A DNA stretch of 64,000 nucleotides from Candidatus Dasytiphilus stammeri (GTDB lineage Bacteria > Pseudomonadota > Gammaproteobacteria > Enterobacterales > Enterobacteriaceae), in the NCBI GenBank assembly GCA_041941865.1, contig CP145873.1, forward strand, positions 171,752 to 235,751, given 5' to 3'. This document shows, piece by piece, positions 11,150 to 37,507 of the stretch. The position numbers and the translations under genes were made by a program. Numbering within the stretch: the first letter of the stretch is position 1; each line of letters begins with the position of its first letter. Below the pieces are notes generated by a model. That model worked only from the letters and a program-made list of their open reading frames with translations, did no database searches and was not told the DNA's origin.

Positions 11150-12175
<1,026 letters not shown>

Positions 12176-13101
12176 TCAACATCAATTATTTGATTTTTAA
12201 TATCCGTTATAATTAACTGAAATAATATTAATAATTAAATTATTTTGAATAAAAAATATTCTGAAAATATTATAGGATTAATATTAATCAAATTATAGTT
12301 ATAAAATTCATTTTTCCTTTCCAAAATATAGAAAAATTTTTTCCATCCACTGTTTGGATATCATATAATTTATAGTTTTCATACATAAGTTAAATACAAT
12401 ATTATAAATTATTTAAATTTATTGATGTTTCATCCTAATAATTCATCAATATTGGAGAAAATATGATCTCAATCATATTGATAATCATTGATTAAGCAAA
12501 AATATTTCTCAAAAGAAAAAATTTTACAAATACGTAATAATTCAATAGATTTAAGTTAGTAAAATTTTTTAGTTATCTTCTGAACAAAATTTGTGAAAAA
12601 TATTATTTAATCATTAATTAATATTTTTTTACTTTATTAGCAATAACTATTTCCTATAATAAATCTGCTGATATTACGATAAAGTAAATTAAATACTAGG
12701 ATGAACTGATTCAGTTAATTTTTGATACTGATAATTATTATCTAAAACTGATAATTTTCTATTATCCACTTTAATAGTTAGTTAATTTCTAATTGTTAGG
12801 ATGAAAGATATTATCTAATATTCAGACGTATCATATTGTATGAGTCCTAAAATAAATTTGTTATGATACTTAAGAAAATTATTAACATAACCATTGATTA
12901 CATTTGATAATTTTATCTTAAATAATTATGATTATTTTTTATAATAGTTATTTTTAGTGACAATGAAACATGATAATTACGTTATTACCATTTTGTACTG
13001 TATTTTAGTTTTTGACATTATAATTTATCTTTCACTATCGCAATAAATTCCATTTATTTGTTTTATAAAAATTTTCCATAAAAAGATTAGAGGATTCATT
13101 T

Positions 13102-14615: not shown

Positions 14616-15578
14616 TTAATACTCTATTACTATAGAAATAGTATCCGAATAATGACCAATATTAATATTTTTTTGTTGATTATTAACAGATACTTGATAA
14701 GTAATTATTTGAGGTCTACCTGAACCTGTAACACCTAATTTACTATTTTTATTCCAGATAATATTGGTATCAGGATGATAAATATTATATTGTATATAAT
14801 GACCTAGTCCATCAGACATTTGTCTCCATTCTCCATGAGAAAAATTACCATCATTAAACCAAATATTGAAATGTTCGTTTTTAGTACAACTTACAGTAAG
14901 TGTATTTATTAATGGTCTAACTTTATGTATCGAAGTGGTAAAGCCAAAATCAATATTATTAATATTATTTATTAAACATTCTTTTTCTACTACTCCATGT
15001 ACTTTAATAGTAGTAAATCCTGTTCCTTTCCAATTAGAAAAACATAGAAATAATGTTCCTACTCGACAAATAGAATATTCCCATTTTACTTGAAGAAAAT
15101 CTTGATAAAGACCAGAACTAACATTGAAATTAGGCTGAGTTTTTAAATATAGGGGAATTTCCCTATTAGTTGAAGCAAAAATTACTGATAATAAATTTAA
15201 TTTCTCGAAATTTATATCTTGTCCTATTTTATAAGCATACTGATAATCTTTATCAGGATATATTAAATATGGAATATATTCTTCTACCGAAGAATCTTGA
15301 TTTTTCATTTTCATATTATTTAAAGTAGAAACAATTTGAGCTTTAATAGTATTATGAGTTAATAATGTGGCATTAAATCCTGAACAAAATAAACCTGAAT
15401 TGCCTGATGATTGAATATTTCCATTTAGTATAGTAAATGAACTATTTTTTCCTAAATTTATATCTCCCGAAGAAAATGTACACTCTCCTCTGGTTATAAA
15501 AGGATAGAAAAAAATAATAATGGAAAATAATTTCAGATAATTTCTTTTGAAATATGAATTTTTAACTTTTACTGGCAT
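14616..15578 (-). CDS. Two-domain SCPU (spore-coat-protein-U) family pilus subunit, CsuE-like putative tip adhesin
   Basis: 320 aa with a signal peptide. The C-terminal half has the SCPU pattern (ECLINNINNIDFG ... LTVSCTKNE ... YIQYNIY ... GSGRPQIITYQVSV ... GHYSDTISIVIEY). It is the last gene of the operon, and its start overlaps the usher stop by 10 nt. Confidence 0.7.
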   Translation of the reverse strand: MPVKVKNSYFKRNYLKLFSIIIFFYPFITRGECTFSSGDINLGKNSSFTILNGNIQSSGNSGLFCSGFNATLLTHNTIKAQIVSTLNNMKMKNQDSSVEEYIPYLIYPDKDYQYAYKIGQDINFEKLNLLSVIFASTNREIPLYLKTQPNFNVSSGLYQDFLQVKWEYSICRVGTLFLCFSNWKGTGFTTIKVHGVVEKECLINNINNIDFGFTTSIHKVRPLINTLTVSCTKNEHFNIWFNDGNFSHGEWRQMSDGLGHYIQYNIYHPDTNIIWNKNSKLGVTGSGRPQIITYQVSVNNQQKNINIGHYSDTISIVIEY

Positions 15579-18010
15579 AGTTGTAATCCAGGTTGAAAAA
15601 TTTTATCGTGGGAGGTTTTACTAATATCCACTATTACTTTACACGTAGTACTATTATCTGATCTAGTAATAAGCAGAATATTATTATTAATAATATCTTC
15701 AATAAATACTTCTCCTTCTAACCCTACCCAAGTCATCTTAGAAGTACCTCTGATATTAACTAAACTACCTTGAGGTAAAAAATTACCATATTCATCAATT
15801 ACAGAAAAAACCGCTGATTGAGTTCTGTAGAAAGGAAATTTCACTATATAACCACTATGTTCCTTAACATTAAAAGTTTTACTTATTTCTGGTACCTTCA
15901 CTCCAAGTGGAATATTTCGATAATCAATTGTTATTGTAGATGGATACAATGAAGATACAGATGAAACTAAAAAATATCCCTTATTATTAGTTTTTCCAAT
16001 TAATCTATTTTCATAAAAAATTGGAATATTTGGATATCCATTAGTAGATACCAGTACCAACCCATCATTAATAAAAGGGGAAAAATTTATATATTTACCT
16101 ATAGCTACTACTGAACCAGTTAATTGACACCATATTTTTGAATAATTATTCATTCTATATAAACCTAAGTGACTAGAAAAATATTTATTTTTCCACAACA
16201 TTTCAGCCTGATTAAATAAATAATTATTATTATTTTTATAATAAGCAATATTCCATCCTATACCTTCATCAGAAGGAATACTTCTATTCCATGATTGACT
16301 TATAAAATAATGATTATCTTTATTAATTTCCGTTGTTAAAGATGTATTTCCAAAAATATTTAAAGGCATACTTAACATTAACTGTGCTTGATAACCATTT
16401 TGGGTACCTTTATATTTATTAATAGAAGTCCATAAATTCAAATTTTTACCTAAAGAAGTACTATAAGAAAGAGTAAATTCTTGTAATTTAGTTTTACTTT
16501 TTTCTATAGTTTGCAAAAAACTCATACTCACATTACTACATGTACTTAAATGAAGGTTACCATTTATTTGAAAAAAATGTTTACCTAAATTATACTTAGG
16601 TATAATATTAGTTTGATAATTGTATAATTCAATATAATTACCAGTACGGTAGCTATATTGAGTATTGAAACTTAATAAACTATTATAAGATGTATATCCT
16701 AAGTTGATCTGTTGTCCTGAATAGTTACAATTTAGTGATCTACATTGACCTGAATTTAGATTACTTTGTAATAAAAAATTTGTCGGTTTATTTTTTTGTG
16801 AAAAATTACTTTTACTCCATGAAAAATTAATTAATCCTAATAAAAAAAATTTTATATCACCTCCTAGTCCTAGATTATAAAAATTTTTAGTACTTTCGCC
16901 TATTATATTTACTGTCATCCATGGTAATAAACCATATCTTATATATCCACTAAGAGCCATATCAGAAGTATAATTAAAAGATTTGATTCCGTAATTAAGA
17001 CGTAAATATCCTAATGATAAACTAAAATCAGTTAACCCGACATTAAGTAAATTGGTATCTATATACAAAGGAATTTGTACACGTTTCGATCTACCTAATC
17101 TATCAGATGTTAGTATAGTAGCAATATTATACCCATTGAAATATCCTAAATTATTTACCAATGTAAATCTTCCTGGATTTATTAACCGAGAAAAAATTTT
17201 CGAATGATTAAGATATACATCTAATATACTAGGCATATTTGCATATCCTTTCATTTTAGGTAGATAATATGTAATGAAGTAAGGATGAAGACTAAATTTG
17301 CGTGATACTTTAATACCTGCCATTCTTACTGGAGAAAATCCGCTAAGAATATCTGTATTATAATCACCAATTATATAATTTAACATATGTTTTTGGTTAT
17401 TTAGACTGATTTGAGTATCATTACGAATGTAATATGATTGTATATTTGTATGTAACTGATGAATGGTTAAGATTCCAGTAGTAGAGAATACACCTATGTT
17501 ATTAAATAATCGTATTTCTGACCATAATGACGAATTTCCATTTTGATTATTATTGAATGATGTAAAATTCCAATTATAATTTAATAGTGCGCCAAAGGTG
17601 CTTTGTGCTGGTTTTTGATTTTTTATCAAATTATTTTGAAAAATTATTGTTTTTTCTGGTAACCAAAAATAAGGTACATCTAGAAATAATCTTTGCATTG
17701 GTTGATCATATTTAGTAATAAAATTTTTTACTAAATCTACAGGTAACTCATTTTTAATAAAATTTAGTTCTATTTTTTTAATTTGGTTGGAATTCAATCC
17801 TATTTTATTTAAAGATTCTCTCGCCATATAAAAATGGCGAGAATTATATTTTACTGGTAATATTTGTATACTGTCATTACCATTTATTACTAATTGTAAA
17901 TATAATTGAGTACTAGAAGATAAAAAATTTTTATTTATTTTACCTTCAACATCATTGATAAAAAAAAATACTAAAAATAGTAACCACTCAATTATTCTGG
18001 AAAATTTCAT
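15569..18010 (-). CDS. Fimbrial outer-membrane usher (CsuD-like)
   Basis: 813 aa with a signal peptide. Composition is rich in beta-strand-type Y/N/G/S residues. It lies between a PapD-like chaperone gene and pilus subunit genes, and its size is typical of ushers. Confidence 0.8.
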   Translation of the reverse strand: MKFSRIIEWLLFLVFFFINDVEGKINKNFLSSSTQLYLQLVINGNDSIQILPVKYNSRHFYMARESLNKIGLNSNQIKKIELNFIKNELPVDLVKNFITKYDQPMQRLFLDVPYFWLPEKTIIFQNNLIKNQKPAQSTFGALLNYNWNFTSFNNNQNGNSSLWSEIRLFNNIGVFSTTGILTIHQLHTNIQSYYIRNDTQISLNNQKHMLNYIIGDYNTDILSGFSPVRMAGIKVSRKFSLHPYFITYYLPKMKGYANMPSILDVYLNHSKIFSRLINPGRFTLVNNLGYFNGYNIATILTSDRLGRSKRVQIPLYIDTNLLNVGLTDFSLSLGYLRLNYGIKSFNYTSDMALSGYIRYGLLPWMTVNIIGESTKNFYNLGLGGDIKFFLLGLINFSWSKSNFSQKNKPTNFLLQSNLNSGQCRSLNCNYSGQQINLGYTSYNSLLSFNTQYSYRTGNYIELYNYQTNIIPKYNLGKHFFQINGNLHLSTCSNVSMSFLQTIEKSKTKLQEFTLSYSTSLGKNLNLWTSINKYKGTQNGYQAQLMLSMPLNIFGNTSLTTEINKDNHYFISQSWNRSIPSDEGIGWNIAYYKNNNNYLFNQAEMLWKNKYFSSHLGLYRMNNYSKIWCQLTGSVVAIGKYINFSPFINDGLVLVSTNGYPNIPIFYENRLIGKTNNKGYFLVSSVSSLYPSTITIDYRNIPLGVKVPEISKTFNVKEHSGYIVKFPFYRTQSAVFSVIDEYGNFLPQGSLVNIRGTSKMTWVGLEGEVFIEDIINNNILLITRSDNSTTCKVIVDISKTSHDKIFQPGLQLCQ

Positions 18011-18034
18011 TGTTTGATGAAAATATCTGCAAAA

Positions 18035-18829
18035 TTATTGTTGTTTAATGGAAATAAAAAATGGAATTGTTTGAATTTTTTCTTGATTATTAATTCTGGC
18101 CGTTAAAATTTCACTTCCTGTTAACGATTGAGAAATCGGAAAACTAATTTCATTGCCAGGTAGAATATAACCTAAAAATTCTTCCTTCATTAAATATTGA
18201 TTTTTCTTATCTTTAAAGTCAACTTCACTAAGTTTAGCATGCACATATCCATCATTACGAATATGTAAGTATTGTTTATTATTTTTATTAATAATGTAAT
18301 AATGTAATTTAGGAGAAAAAATACTTAAATTATTATCCAAAGGATAAATAGTATTTGATGAAGATTGAATGTTAGGTCCATATCCAAAGAAGGGGATAGA
18401 GTAACGAATTTGTAATTTTAATTTATTTTTTTGTTGATTAATATCTTTCAAATCATTTAATCGAGGAATTTCATCAATTATTATACGATATGATCTTTCT
18501 TCATATGGAAGAGGATTAATAATTTTCACTAACCGTATTAACTGTTTATGATGAGACTTAATCAATACTATCGGTGGACTTACTAATATATCATTTTGTT
18601 TTTTTAATAAAAAATTATTATTTTTTTGTTTCCAGCTATAAATTCTAATTTGTAATAAAATATCTTGTTTATCTAAATTTTCTAACCATAATGAAGTAGT
18701 ATTATCTTTATATTCAATAATAGGATCAATGGGCCAAATATTTACTGATGCAGCCGAAACTACTGTAATACAGTTTACGATAATAAATATCACTATCAAC
18801 CATAATGTTAATCTTATTTTATAATCCAT
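18035..18829 (-). CDS. Periplasmic pilus chaperone (PapD-like, CsuC-like)
   Basis: 264 aa with a signal peptide. VNIWPIDPII, LWLENLDKQDILLQIRIYSW, LVSPPIVLIKSHHKQLIRLV, ERSYRIIIDEIP and IRYSIPFF fit the chaperone N-terminal-domain pattern. Confidence 0.8.
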   Translation of the reverse strand: MDYKIRLTLWLIVIFIIVNCITVVSAASVNIWPIDPIIEYKDNTTSLWLENLDKQDILLQIRIYSWKQKNNNFLLKKQNDILVSPPIVLIKSHHKQLIRLVKIINPLPYEERSYRIIIDEIPRLNDLKDINQQKNKLKLQIRYSIPFFGYGPNIQSSSNTIYPLDNNLSIFSPKLHYYIINKNNKQYLHIRNDGYVHAKLSEVDFKDKKNQYLMKEEFLGYILPGNEISFPISQSLTGSEILTARINNQEKIQTIPFFISIKQQ

Positions 18830-18882
18830 ACACTGATTTGCTCCAGACCTATTTAATATTTGTTGAAGTTAAAAATTATTTT

Positions 18883-19386
18883 TTACCAGCTAACTGTAAT
18901 AGTTAAAATATCTAGATATTTTCCGGCACTAGGAACAGGTTGTTTAGGTACTCGACCATAAATTACTAACGGCATATTTTGTCCCGTTCCTTTTTTACTT
19001 ATAATTTCATCACTATTCCATAATAAAGAATATGCGGCATCTTTATATAAATCATATTTTATAAATTCATTTTTTTCTCCTTTCATTCTTCTTTGTGGTC
19101 CTTCAGGTTGTAATCCATTATTGACCTTGAGATGAAAAGATACTCCTTTTGTACAATTTACAGATATAATATTGACTGGTTTTGAGGTAGTAGTTGTATC
19201 TATTAAATTATTAATATTTGGATGTTCCCCAAAATCTAAATTACCAAAGGTTAATTCCTGTTCTCCAGTAATTTCACAACCATTACCTATAATCATATGA
19301 ACTCCAATATTTCCTGATATTTGTCCACTTGCATAAAGTGAGGTGGAAAAAAATAAACTAATGATCAATATTAATATTTTATTCAT
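18883..19386 (-). CDS. SCPU-domain major pilin (CsuA/B-like)
   Basis: 167 aa with a signal peptide (MNKILILIISLFFSTSLYA). GCEIT..LTFGNLDFG, ISVNCTKGVSFHL, IKYDLYKDAAY, GTGQNMPLVIYGRVP and SAGKYLDILTITVSW fit the SCPU consensus. Confidence 0.8.
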   Translation of the reverse strand: MNKILILIISLFFSTSLYASGQISGNIGVHMIIGNGCEITGEQELTFGNLDFGEHPNINNLIDTTTTSKPVNIISVNCTKGVSFHLKVNNGLQPEGPQRRMKGEKNEFIKYDLYKDAAYSLLWNSDEIISKKGTGQNMPLVIYGRVPKQPVPSAGKYLDILTITVSW

Positions 19387-19455
19387 AGATTTTTATTTTT
19401 TTTAAAAGTATATATTTAATACTAATTATAGTATTTCTTGCGCATAAAAATTATT

Positions 19456-21641: not shown

Positions 21642-21838
21642 GAGAATATATACTCCAGGAGTTATTAAAAAAAATATAATATTAATATTTTTTTTTAAAA
21701 AAAATCCAAAAAATATTTTACAAAAACCAAATAATATTAATAATCTATTTGAAGTTAGGAAATTATTACTTCTTTAAGCTAAGTTAATAAACTAACTAAT
21801 TTTTTTCTTCTATTATGACATAAATGATCTAATTATTT

Positions 21839-32972: not shown

Positions 32973-33215
32973 CTAAGGATTGTTACTTTGAGGTAAATGC
33001 TGACCACCTGTAGTCCCAGGATGGCATAGTAATATACGTTTTACTGTTAACCAACTACCTTGGATTATTCCTAATCTACTTAGTACCTCAATAGCATATT
33101 GAGAACATGTTGGTTGAAATCGACAATTAGGACCTATTAATACACTAAGAAAAAATTGATAATTCTTAATTATTAAAATTAATACTTGTAATACATAAAA
33201 AGACAATTGTTCCAT
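32973..33215 (-). CDS. yidD: Membrane protein insertion efficiency factor YidD
   Basis: 80 aa. [15 protein letters not shown] and [14 protein letters not shown] match, and it overlaps the rnpA 3' end. Confidence 0.88.
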
Positions 33216-33538
33216 AATATTTTTAATATTTTTATAATATAATGATTATTTTTGTTAATGAAATTTTGTTTTATAATGATGATAAAATCTATATTTTTTA
33301 TATAATGTTGATGTAAACGAAAACTTTCCCGGATAATTCTTTTTACTCTATTACGTTCATGTGCTTTCTTTATGACTTTTTTACTTATACATATTCCTAT
33401 ACGTGGATATTCTAAAAAATTTTTTTGATAGAAAAGAGTAATTTCTCTCATAGAGAGAGATTGGTTAATTTGAAAAATTTCTCTAAATTTTTTACTATTA
33501 TTTAACCTCAAAATTTTTGGAAATTTATATCTTTCCAT
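33179..33538 (-). CDS. rnpA: RNase P protein component
   Basis: 119 aa and basic. It contains [18 protein letters not shown] (the RNR motif) and lies downstream of rpmH. Confidence 0.9.
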
Positions 33539-33563
33539 TTTAATTTTTCAGCCAATTAACTTT

Positions 33564-33704
33564 TTAATTAGAAATACTTAAACGAGATCTTTTTTTAGCT
33601 CTGCGTCGAGCCAAAATTTTTCGACCATTTTTTGTTGACATTCTAATCCGAAAACCATGAGTACGATTTCTCTTAATTACTGAAGGTTGAAAAGTTCGTT
33701 TCAT
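33564..33704 (-). CDS. rpmH: 50S ribosomal protein L34 (below the ORF-track length cut-off)
   Basis: Manual translation gives [46 protein letters not shown], 46 aa, collinear with E. coli L34. Confidence 0.93.
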
Positions 33705-33907
33705 AATTCATTTTCTTTTTTAAATAAAAATTTAATAAAAATAAACGAGTAAATAAAATATAATTCTATTATAAAATTATTTTTTTGGAAAGAACAATTA
33801 TTTTTTCAATTTTTTATGATAAAATTTCATTTATCAAAGTAAAAAATTTTACCTACACATTCATTATTTTCTCAAATAATTACTTTTAACAATTCTTTAC
33901 AATTTTT

Positions 33908-35011
33908 ATGAAATTTACTATACAACGTGAACAATTATTAAAACCATTACAACAAACTACTAGAACTATTAGTAATAAACCATTATTACCTATTATTAAT
34001 AATATTCTACTTCAGGTAAGTCAAGGAACACTATGGTTAACTTCTACTGATCTTGAAATAGAGATGCAAACATATATTAAACTCATACAACCACATAAAG
34101 AAGGTGGAATTACTGTACCTGCCAGAAAATTATTAGAAATTTGTAAATGTTTACCATTAAATTCTAACATAATAGTGACTGTTCAAAAACAACAAATATT
34201 ATTAACTTCTGGATATAGTAAATTTTATTTATCTACATTAGCAGCAGATAATTTTCCTCATTTAGACTCCTTTGATAGTGAAATTGAATTAACTATTAAA
34301 CAAAACATAATGAAATATTTGATAGAATCAACCTATTTTTCTATGGCCCGACAAGATGTACGTTATTACCTTAATGGTCTTTTGTTAGAGATCAATGGAG
34401 TACAATTAGCTACAGTAGCTACTGATGGACATCGTTTAGCTTTTTGTAAAAGTATTGTAAGTAAAAGTTTTTCTTTAACGTCCATTATTCTTCCTAGAAA
34501 AACAGTTCTCGAAATTTTGAGATTACTAGAAAATAATGATCAATTATTAAAGCTACAAATTAGTAAAAATAATATAAGAATATATCTAAATCATTGTATA
34601 ATTACATCTAGAATTATAGATGGTAAGTTTCCTAATTATCATACGGTATTACAAAATAATTATGATAAACTAATTATCGTACAAGCAGATTTATTAAAAT
34701 TATCTTTATATAGAGCTTCTATTTTAGCTAATGAAAGATTAAATGGAGTATGTTTAGATTTACAACCAAATATGTTAAAAATTACTGCTACTAATATGGA
34801 ACAAGAAAAATCTGAAGAAATAGTTGATATTGATTATCAAGGTAAATGTTTAAGTATTATTATTAATGTAAAATACATATTAGATGTATTGAAAAATTTT
34901 AATAGTGAAAAAATTAGAATATTATTCCGAGATTCACAATCTAGTATTAAAATTGAAAGAGTCACGAGTAATTCAGATAATATGTATGTAATAATGCCAA
35001 TGCAATTATAA
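33908..35011 (+). CDS. dnaN: DNA polymerase III beta sliding clamp
   Basis: 367 aa. MKFTIQREQLLKPLQQ and ATDGHRLA match, and gyrB follows. Confidence 0.95.
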   Translation: MKFTIQREQLLKPLQQTTRTISNKPLLPIINNILLQVSQGTLWLTSTDLEIEMQTYIKLIQPHKEGGITVPARKLLEICKCLPLNSNIIVTVQKQQILLTSGYSKFYLSTLAADNFPHLDSFDSEIELTIKQNIMKYLIESTYFSMARQDVRYYLNGLLLEINGVQLATVATDGHRLAFCKSIVSKSFSLTSIILPRKTVLEILRLLENNDQLLKLQISKNNIRIYLNHCIITSRIIDGKFPNYHTVLQNNYDKLIIVQADLLKLSLYRASILANERLNGVCLDLQPNMLKITATNMEQEKSEEIVDIDYQGKCLSIIINVKYILDVLKNFNSEKIRILFRDSQSSIKIERVTSNSDNMYVIMPMQL

Positions 35012-35098
35012 TGAGACTACAGTGTAATAATTGAAAAAATTTTTCAAATATTGTTCATACTACTTAATATATTTTACAATTTTCTTTTATATTAGTGA

Positions 35099-37507
<2,409 letters not shown>

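Follow-up and report, generated by a model that had tools for sequence, protein, structure and literature searches.

To our knowledge, obligate insect endosymbionts with genomes below 0.5 Mb normally shed their surface appendages, and almost nothing is known of the means by which they adhere to host tissue or get into it. The question raised here is why an operon of the chaperone-usher pilus type is found in 'Candidatus Dasytiphilus stammeri', in a 64,000-nucleotide stretch of its ~440 kb genome (contig CP145873.1, positions 171,752 to 235,751). The whole of this stretch is called the window, and coordinates are window positions unless another locus is named. The operon lies at 14616-19386 with all four genes on the minus strand, and encodes a pilin, a chaperone, an usher and a tip adhesin. 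Dasytiphilus is a bacteriome symbiont of dasytine soft-winged flower beetles, from which 20 genomes of 437-601 kb have been described (Wierz et al. 2024, PMC11191362). Six proteins of the window are identical to the GenBank entries WWO97145-97151; the pilus genes are annotated there (WWO97147-97150) and listed in a supplementary table of that study, the main text of which makes no mention of pilus, fimbria, usher or adhesion; they were already annotated and tabulated, but not interpreted before. The analyses described below point to an archaic chaperone-usher pilus operon (sigma-clade, Csu/CupE-type) that is functional and inherited vertically, a reading to which we assign a probability of roughly 0.75.

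Identity of the four proteins

The operon is of the archaic chaperone-usher type. This had been proposed from the letters of the DNA alone in the original prediction, and it was borne out for the SCPU, chaperone and usher genes by profile hidden Markov models, by sequence matches to the PDB and by Foldseek. The pilin matched the Pfam family SCPU (PF05229, 1.2e-27) and no other Pfam family. Its best match among solved structures was 8cio, an 'SCPU domain-containing protein' (1.3e-22) that we take to be the Pseudomonas aeruginosa CupE1 filament, and it also matched CsuA/B (5.6e-7). The pilin signal peptide ends in SLYA, and the mature N-terminus, SGQISGNIGVHMIIGNGC, aligns to GTLIGQVGVQMVIGAGC of 8cio. 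Its N-terminal donor strand is SGQISGNIGVHMIIG, and both residues of its conserved cysteine pair (GNGCEI and NCTK) are invariant across 10 strains.

The chaperone matched PapD_N in Pfam (2.2e-15), and its sole PDB sequence match was CsuC (3e-36, residues 29-246); the motifs IWPIDP, YRIIIDEIP and MRYSIP are kept across 10 strains. The usher matched the Pfam Usher family (2.9e-27) and, below the cut-off, PapC_C, while PapC_N was not detected by the Pfam sequence search and no PDB match was found by sequence. An AlphaFold model of the usher, built from 37 homologues with a predicted local distance difference test score (pLDDT) of 77.4, matched full-length FimD (3rfz_B) with an E value of 5.9e-44 over 827 aligned columns and a template modelling (TM) score of 0.61-0.63. 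Since the model aligns along the whole of FimD, the N-terminal, pore/plug and C-terminal domains are all present. The closest usher relatives outside the symbionts were those of Yersinia (33-34%) and the 'CsuD' of Pseudomonas (~30%). NCBIfam gave only weak subfamily matches for the chaperone and the usher.

The last protein is an ordinary member of the archaic-pilus family of two-domain adhesins. Two stretches matched Pfam SCPU (8.4e-35) and no other family, and the sole PDB sequence match was CsuE (6fjy_B, 4.8e-12), which spans query residues 36-319. An AlphaFold model from a nine-sequence alignment (pLDDT 70.7) also had CsuE as its top Foldseek match (E 2.4e-16, 316 columns), so the CsuE-type tip assignment made earlier for this protein was upheld. 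A word-indexed search for homologues returned Dasytiphilus proteins only; with an exhaustive, profile-free search the number rose to 344 relatives (E<1e-3), many being full length at ~310-340 amino acids (aa) with 25-33% identity. Classical type 1 or P fimbriae were considered and rejected: no fimbrial Pfam family was matched, and FimH, PapG and CfaE were only distant fold matches of the tip model, far behind CsuE.

Purifying selection on the operon

The ratio of nonsynonymous to synonymous substitution rates (dN/dS) was estimated by the Nei-Gojobori method (NG86) within the Listrus host clade plus the window (Table 1). The values were 0.1-0.5 for pilin, usher and tip and up to 0.69 for the chaperone, like those of the neighbouring housekeeping genes, a comparison that is internal and fair. 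In four independent strain pairs, 1 lay outside the bootstrap 95% interval of each of the four genes, save for the chaperone in one very close pair, Lsp06-Lsp02 (0.40-1.24); chaperone dN/dS in the bootstrapped comparison spanned 0.27 to 0.69. No general relaxation was seen in the clade without the minor pilins described below; chaperone dN/dS was somewhat higher there.

Table 1. Protein identity and dN/dS of the pilus genes and of genes nearby
Gene	Identity, Listrus clade	Identity, other clades	dN/dS
pilin	79-81%	~50%	0.11-0.22
tip	71-74%	~50%	0.19-0.41
chaperone	~64%	~42%	0.39-0.69
usher	~59%	37-41%	0.36-0.45
hflC	76-79%	56-63%	0.27-0.31
miaA	~77%	~58%	
mutL	~67%	~46%	0.36-0.46
gapA	~84%	65-69%	0.13-0.20

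Neutral evolution was also simulated, in 300 runs with the base composition of the window and 0.28 substitutions per site, the synonymous divergence of the lineage. Around 34 new stop codons were expected in the usher, and not one of the four open reading frames (ORFs) stayed intact in any run (P(intact)=0 in 300 runs for each). The substitution patterns among relatives are thus not neutral and the operon is under purifying selection, which had first been argued from the length of the open frames alone.

Distribution, synteny and age

A scan of species-representative genomes uncovered 10 other Dasytiphilus loci, from symbionts of the Listrus, Dasytastes and Dasytes host clades. Nine are complete (L002-L009 and L015) and share the gene order mutL-miaA-hflK-hflC-pilin(s)-chaperone-usher-tip-ygdQ-mutH-sppA-gapA, with lysA inserted between tip and ygdQ in the Dasytastes clade. 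All of their pilus ORFs are open. The tenth, L001, ends at a contig end, with the usher and tip genes adjoining ygdQ-mutH. The placement of the operon between hflC and ygdQ-mutH therefore holds in the relatives too, and the genes are not pseudogenised there. From its divergence and its four-gene layout, the window strain probably belongs to the Listrus clade.

By the published orthogroup table (Supplementary File 02, PMC11191362), 16-17 of the 20 strains have the cupE (SCPU), usher and fimC-type chaperone orthogroups. A yes or no in this table records whether a KEGG Orthology (KO) number was assigned, not whether a gene is functional. Neither of the two Danacea nigritarsis symbionts has the operon, nor does the symbiont of Dasytes lineellus (PMC11191362). 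The usher and tip are also missing from Listrus sp. 07, probably as an assembly artefact rather than a loss, because this genome is a draft in 90 contigs at <10x coverage.

Dasytastes is the first-branching symbiotic host clade, and the operon is present in it. The same locus in three clades, together with this branching order, implies that the ancestor shared by the known Dasytiphilus strains already had the operon; its absence from the Danacea and D. lineellus symbionts is then a secondary loss. The identical junction, seen in three host clades and in 10 strains besides that of the window, agrees with the original prediction of an old resident. A horizontally acquired genomic island was rejected: the locus is fixed in 11 genomes, the GC content of the operon (0.22-0.27) matches that of the window (0.27), no tRNA gene is nearby (the nearest are at 6.1-6.3 kb and 25.2 kb (25241) of the window), and a repeat search around the operon found only low-complexity AT-rich chance matches and no real flanking repeats. 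The AT-rich composition and the lack of flanking tRNA genes and repeats had been read correctly from the start.

Gene layout

The four minus-strand ORFs were intact, and their lengths and coordinates were exactly as first given (Table 2). The overlap of the usher and tip genes, also reported earlier, was read directly from the sequence and is common to most relatives (L002, L003, L004, L005, L008 and L009); the gap to the hflC stop codon was likewise found in the sequence. Signal peptides could be read on all four proteins, as had been predicted, and the predicted cleavage sites coincide with the start of the alignments to mature PDB chains: CsuC residue 3 falls on query residue 29, 8CIO residue 2 on query residue 21 and CsuE residue 6 on query residue 36.

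Table 2. Features of the pilus locus in the window and in relatives
Feature	Locus	Position	Strand	Size or basis
Major pilin, SCPU-fold	window	18883..19386	-	167 aa
PapD-like periplasmic chaperone, CsuC type	window	18035..18829	-	264 aa
Outer-membrane usher: N-terminal domain, barrel with plug, C-terminal domains	window	15569..18010	-	813 aa
Two-domain tip adhesin, CsuE/CupE6 type	window	14616..15578	-	320 aa
Overlap of usher stop and tip start, ATGCCAGTAA	window	15569..15578	-	10 nt, read from sequence
hflC-pilin spacer	window	19387..19455	-	69 bp, sequence
hflC-pilin spacer with promoter-like site	L005	5914-5992		
hflC-pilin spacer with promoter-like site	L006	5907-5973		
hflC-pilin spacer with promoter-like site	L007	5891-5944		
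hflC-pilin spacer with promoter-like site	L015	5937-6022		
hflC-pilin spacer with promoter-like site	L008	5385-5476		
hflC-pilin spacer with promoter-like site	L009	5866-5975		
lysA-like decarboxylase	L005	11284-12543		
lysA-like decarboxylase	L006	11357-12616		
lysA-like decarboxylase	L007	11355-12614		
lysA-like decarboxylase	L015	11315-12574		

Stepwise loss of minor pilins

The number of pilin genes per operon differs among strains: the D. niger symbiont has three, five strains have two, and the Listrus clade and the window have one. The additional pilins are of two SCPU types, ~160 aa and ~188 aa long, which match the second and third pilin genes of Yersinia and Serratia operons (~E 1e-33). 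The D. niger symbiont carries both types, and the five strains carry one. In the window no minor-pilin gene lies between the pilin and the chaperone, and tblastn found no remnant of one in the 53-bp spacer between them.

The presence of a six-gene operon in the D. niger symbiont, in Yersinia and in Serratia makes the four-gene layout the end of a stepwise loss. By this comparison of gene content, the reconstructed ancestor had the canonical six genes: a pilin, two minor pilins, chaperone, usher and tip. The minimal architecture pointed out in the original prediction is real, in that four genes are present, unlike the six of csu; it is not a separate design and derives by loss from the canonical six.

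In the D. aeratus symbiont, the spacer that separates the major pilin from the one minor pilin left (L009, 6480-6622) was matched weakly by tblastn (55% over 20 aa, E 0.002) with the D. niger minor-pilin type that this symbiont is missing. This may be a decayed minor-pilin remnant.

Anatomy of the tip

The tip protein has an N-terminal binding domain (~residues 32-190) and a C-terminal pilin domain (~191-320). In CsuE, the finger loops are L40ALA43 (finger 1), I140VGIGV145 (finger 2) and a third that is specific to Acinetobacter (PMC6003481). In a multiple alignment, finger 1 corresponds to CSGFNATLLT at residues 65-74 (consensus CSG[FL][NS][AML]T[LVF]LT) and finger 2 to a loop closed by two invariant cysteines, C171-RVGTLFL-C179, whose counterparts in Serratia and Yersinia are ICGLGLLGIC and ICKVAAAGIC, respectively; there is no finger 3. 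Loops 1 and 2 are conserved across strains and partly hydrophobic here (FNATLL and RVGTLFL). Both fall in low-confidence segments of the model (69-72 and 174-177), which are probably flexible loops. The binding domain is the more constrained half of the protein, with dN/dS values of 0.11-0.33 as against 0.17-0.48 for the C-terminal domain.

Expression signals and support machinery

The proximity of the operon to hflC leaves two possible sources of transcription, read-through from hflKC and a promoter of its own. A candidate -10 box, TATAAT, is located at 19425-19430, ~38 nt before the pilin ATG, and is common to three Listrus-clade strains. The spacers of six strains with larger genomes, from the Dasytastes clade and from D. 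niger and D. aeratus, contain a near-consensus TTGACA-N16-TACAAT, its second part being TACACT in the last two (Table 2). A terminator scan found no minus-strand terminator or terminator-like hairpin in the hflC-pilin spacer, and a generic promoter scan, uninformative in such AT-rich DNA, found 72 sites where 75 were expected by chance. Because a promoter-like site is conserved in the spacer of the relatives and TATAAT is present in the window, a dedicated promoter is at least as likely as read-through, and the operon probably has one. The -10 box of the Dasytastes-clade strains falls within a perfect inverted repeat of 7 bp, ATCTATT-TTAC-AATAGAT, that could be an operator.

As for the machinery that pilus assembly would need, secY, lepB and bamA are listed in 20 of 20 strains of the published table, and dsbA in all but the Danacea nigritarsis pair, two of the three genomes without the operon (PMC11191362). 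This amounts to a weak co-occurrence of dsbA and the pilus.

Proposed mechanism and role

Every step of the model that follows is drawn from homology. The four precursors would cross the inner membrane via Sec and be cleaved by signal peptidase, and DsbA would close the conserved cysteine pairs. The CsuC-like chaperone would then hold each subunit through donor-strand complementation, and a chaperone-tip complex would prime the usher at the outer membrane. Copies of the single pilin would join by donor-strand exchange via the pilin N-terminal strand, yielding a thin fibre that should require no energy source at the outer membrane, where the secretion of archaic pili has been described as self-driven (PMC9452303). 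At its end the fibre would show a CsuE-like adhesin with two partly hydrophobic finger loops. With both minor pilins lost, the major pilin must join the tip directly.

What would such a fibre be used for? Transmission has been proposed to follow an extracellular route that starts in the bacteriome and leads to the gut, the egg surface, the larval gut and again the bacteriome (Wierz et al. 2024, PMC11191362), and the symbionts were at no time observed in ovaries and on one occasion in the gut (PMC11191362). This route is well matched by an adhesin for generic hydrophobic or host surfaces. We tentatively suggest, at somewhat less than even odds, that the pilus serves attachment to host surfaces (gut, egg surface or nascent bacteriome) in the extracellular step of transmission. 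A broader proposal is more doubtful: that the pilus is a colonisation device for the passage outside host cells, acting through its tip fingers on hydrophobic surfaces, and that CsuA/CsuB-type adaptors are not needed to build and tip an archaic pilus. If true, this would be the first molecular factor identified for such a transmission route, and a natural four-gene case would show that adaptor subunits needed in A. baumannii can be dispensed with.

Several points weigh against a functional pilus with a part in transmission. Functional pili of A. baumannii are reported to require all Csu subunits including CsuA and CsuB (PMC6003481), both of which are missing here. The finger loops are less hydrophobic than those of CsuE or Serratia. 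The surA orthologue is without a KO assignment in most strains of the published table, NG86 dN/dS is a crude measure at 27% GC, and the window strain is without the neighbouring sppA. The same table shows that the symbionts of Danacea nigritarsis (two genomes) and D. lineellus persist without the operon; having been lost there, it is not indispensable for the symbiosis, and if these beetles transmit their symbionts likewise, a role in transmission cannot be obligatory.

A functional pilus could instead act inside the host, binding symbiont cells together or to the host-derived membrane in a biofilm-like packing of the bacteriocytes. Dasytiphilus is densely packed in bacteriocytes and almost never seen elsewhere (PMC11191362), and the same role was proposed for the four-gene fimbria-like system of the bacteriocyte-bound Serratia symbiotica strains STs and SCc (PMC4898801). 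Csu pili drive three-dimensional biofilm architecture via antiparallel stacking (PMC12996565), and purifying selection fits this model equally well as it fits transmission. However, rod-to-rod stacking alone would not lead one to expect a tip binding domain more constrained than the pilin domain. Most obligate bacteriome symbionts are, moreover, not known to have any pili, and the bacteriomes of Danacea, which are similar, house symbionts devoid of the operon. We consider packing unlikely as the function of the pilus.

Archaic chaperone-usher systems form the spore coat of Myxococcus, and the subunits encoded here belong to the 'spore coat protein U' family. The operon might accordingly secrete a protective SCPU surface layer rather than an adhesive fibre, useful in an exposed stage or in strains devoid of peptidoglycan. 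Peptidoglycan synthesis is lost in several strains that bear the operon, namely the symbiont of D. aeratus (operon seen in our locus L009) and those of D. plumbeus, D. virens and P. viridicoerulea (operon by the published table, PMC11191362), and a coat might be less affected than a tipped fibre by the loss of adaptor pilins. A coat, on the other hand, would not need a CsuE-type tip with conserved finger loops and a strongly constrained binding domain, and no lack of peptidoglycan is reported for the window lineage, provided that it is of the Listrus clade. This makes a surface layer very improbable.

A relic without current function that has not yet decayed is close to refuted by the selection data: the operon was lost in at least two lineages and the minor pilins went stepwise, but the pilus ORFs are open in 11 genomes separated by synonymous divergence (dS) > 1 (usher and tip in the partial L001), the dN/dS confidence intervals lie below 1, neutral decay would have broken every ORF, conservation equals that of hflC and miaA, and the non-essential neighbour sppA is gone without trace from the same strain, so that decay here is fast. 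The reading of a functional archaic pilus is the one we retain.

Comparison with known systems

The window operon is a reduced member of the known archaic kind. Like the prototype archaic pilus, Csu of Acinetobacter baumannii (csuA/B-A-B-C-D-E), it has the same protein families, the same gene order and alignable fingers 1 and 2. It differs in having four genes and not six, as the minor pilins of the csuA and csuB positions are missing here and present in sister strains, and in the tip, which has no finger 3 and a finger 2 shortened to a loop closed by two cysteines. Identity to Csu is only ~20-30%, and the bearer is a 440-kb intracellular insect symbiont instead of a free-living opportunist.

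CupE of P. aeruginosa is under two-component regulation, whereas no regulator is visible beside the window operon. CupE has several pilin genes (CupE1/2/3/6 in KEGG) against one here. It is also an archaic pilus with a two-domain tip, CupE6, bearing fingers 1 and 2 (PMC6003481). The closest non-symbiont relatives are six-gene operons of Yersinia spp. and Serratia sp. AKBS12 (L010, L013 and L016), with ushers 32-34% identical and a Serratia tip matched at 2e-79. They share the cysteine-bracketed finger-2 loop, and they differ by three pilins, a normal GC content and another genomic neighbourhood; we know of no characterisation of their functions.

The retention of such a system in a small symbiont genome has a published precedent. 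Serratia symbiotica STs (0.65 Mb) and SCc, both reduced and bacteriocyte-bound, kept intact a set of pilin, chaperone, usher and adhesin that was read as needed for the intracellular lifestyle (PMC4898801). That system, which we compare by description alone, is described as type-1-like and comes from two genomes, without selection analysis or a multi-clade history. The original prediction was thus correct that a pilus operon is retained in a reduced genome, and its view of this as unusual for such a genome has to be tempered by a case known since 2016.

The value of the present locus lies in the multi-clade evidence of selection, in the series of six, five and four genes among sister strains, and in the link to the question of how bacteriome symbionts are transmitted. 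An adhesin system kept under selection through codiversification across three host clades offers a molecular handle on the transmission hypothesis, for which the Danacea and D. lineellus symbionts are natural controls devoid of the pilus. The gene series amounts to a natural deletion experiment on the minimal needs of an archaic pilus.

Gene losses and gains around the operon

The losses of dnaA, recF, hfq and holC at canonical sites, which had been called from the window, were confirmed. Around rnpA, a 369-bp gap and dnaN-gyrB (96 bp apart; 33179-37507), neither dnaA nor recF is present at its canonical position. The genes miaA and hflK are joined directly (21642-21838), leaving out hfq and also hflX, both of which are missing there in L002-L009 and L015 as well. 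Similarly, pepA is followed by valS with no holC between them.

The gene sppA, encoding a signal peptide peptidase of ~600-650 aa, is present at the gapA/mutH site in every other Dasytiphilus locus compared. In the window, 944 bp without ORFs and with a GC content of 0.195 lie between gapA and mutH (12158-13101), where tblastn found no sppA remnant. The window strain deleted or fully eroded sppA and kept the adjoining pilus operon.

The tip and ygdQ genes adjoin each other without a lysA-like gene in the window, in the Listrus clade and at the loci of the D. niger and D. aeratus symbionts. In the Dasytastes-clade strains, a 419-aa pyridoxal phosphate (PLP)-dependent decarboxylase is encoded between the two, with Pfam matches (Orn_Arg_deC_N and Orn_DAP_Arg_deC) that are consistent with lysA (Table 2).

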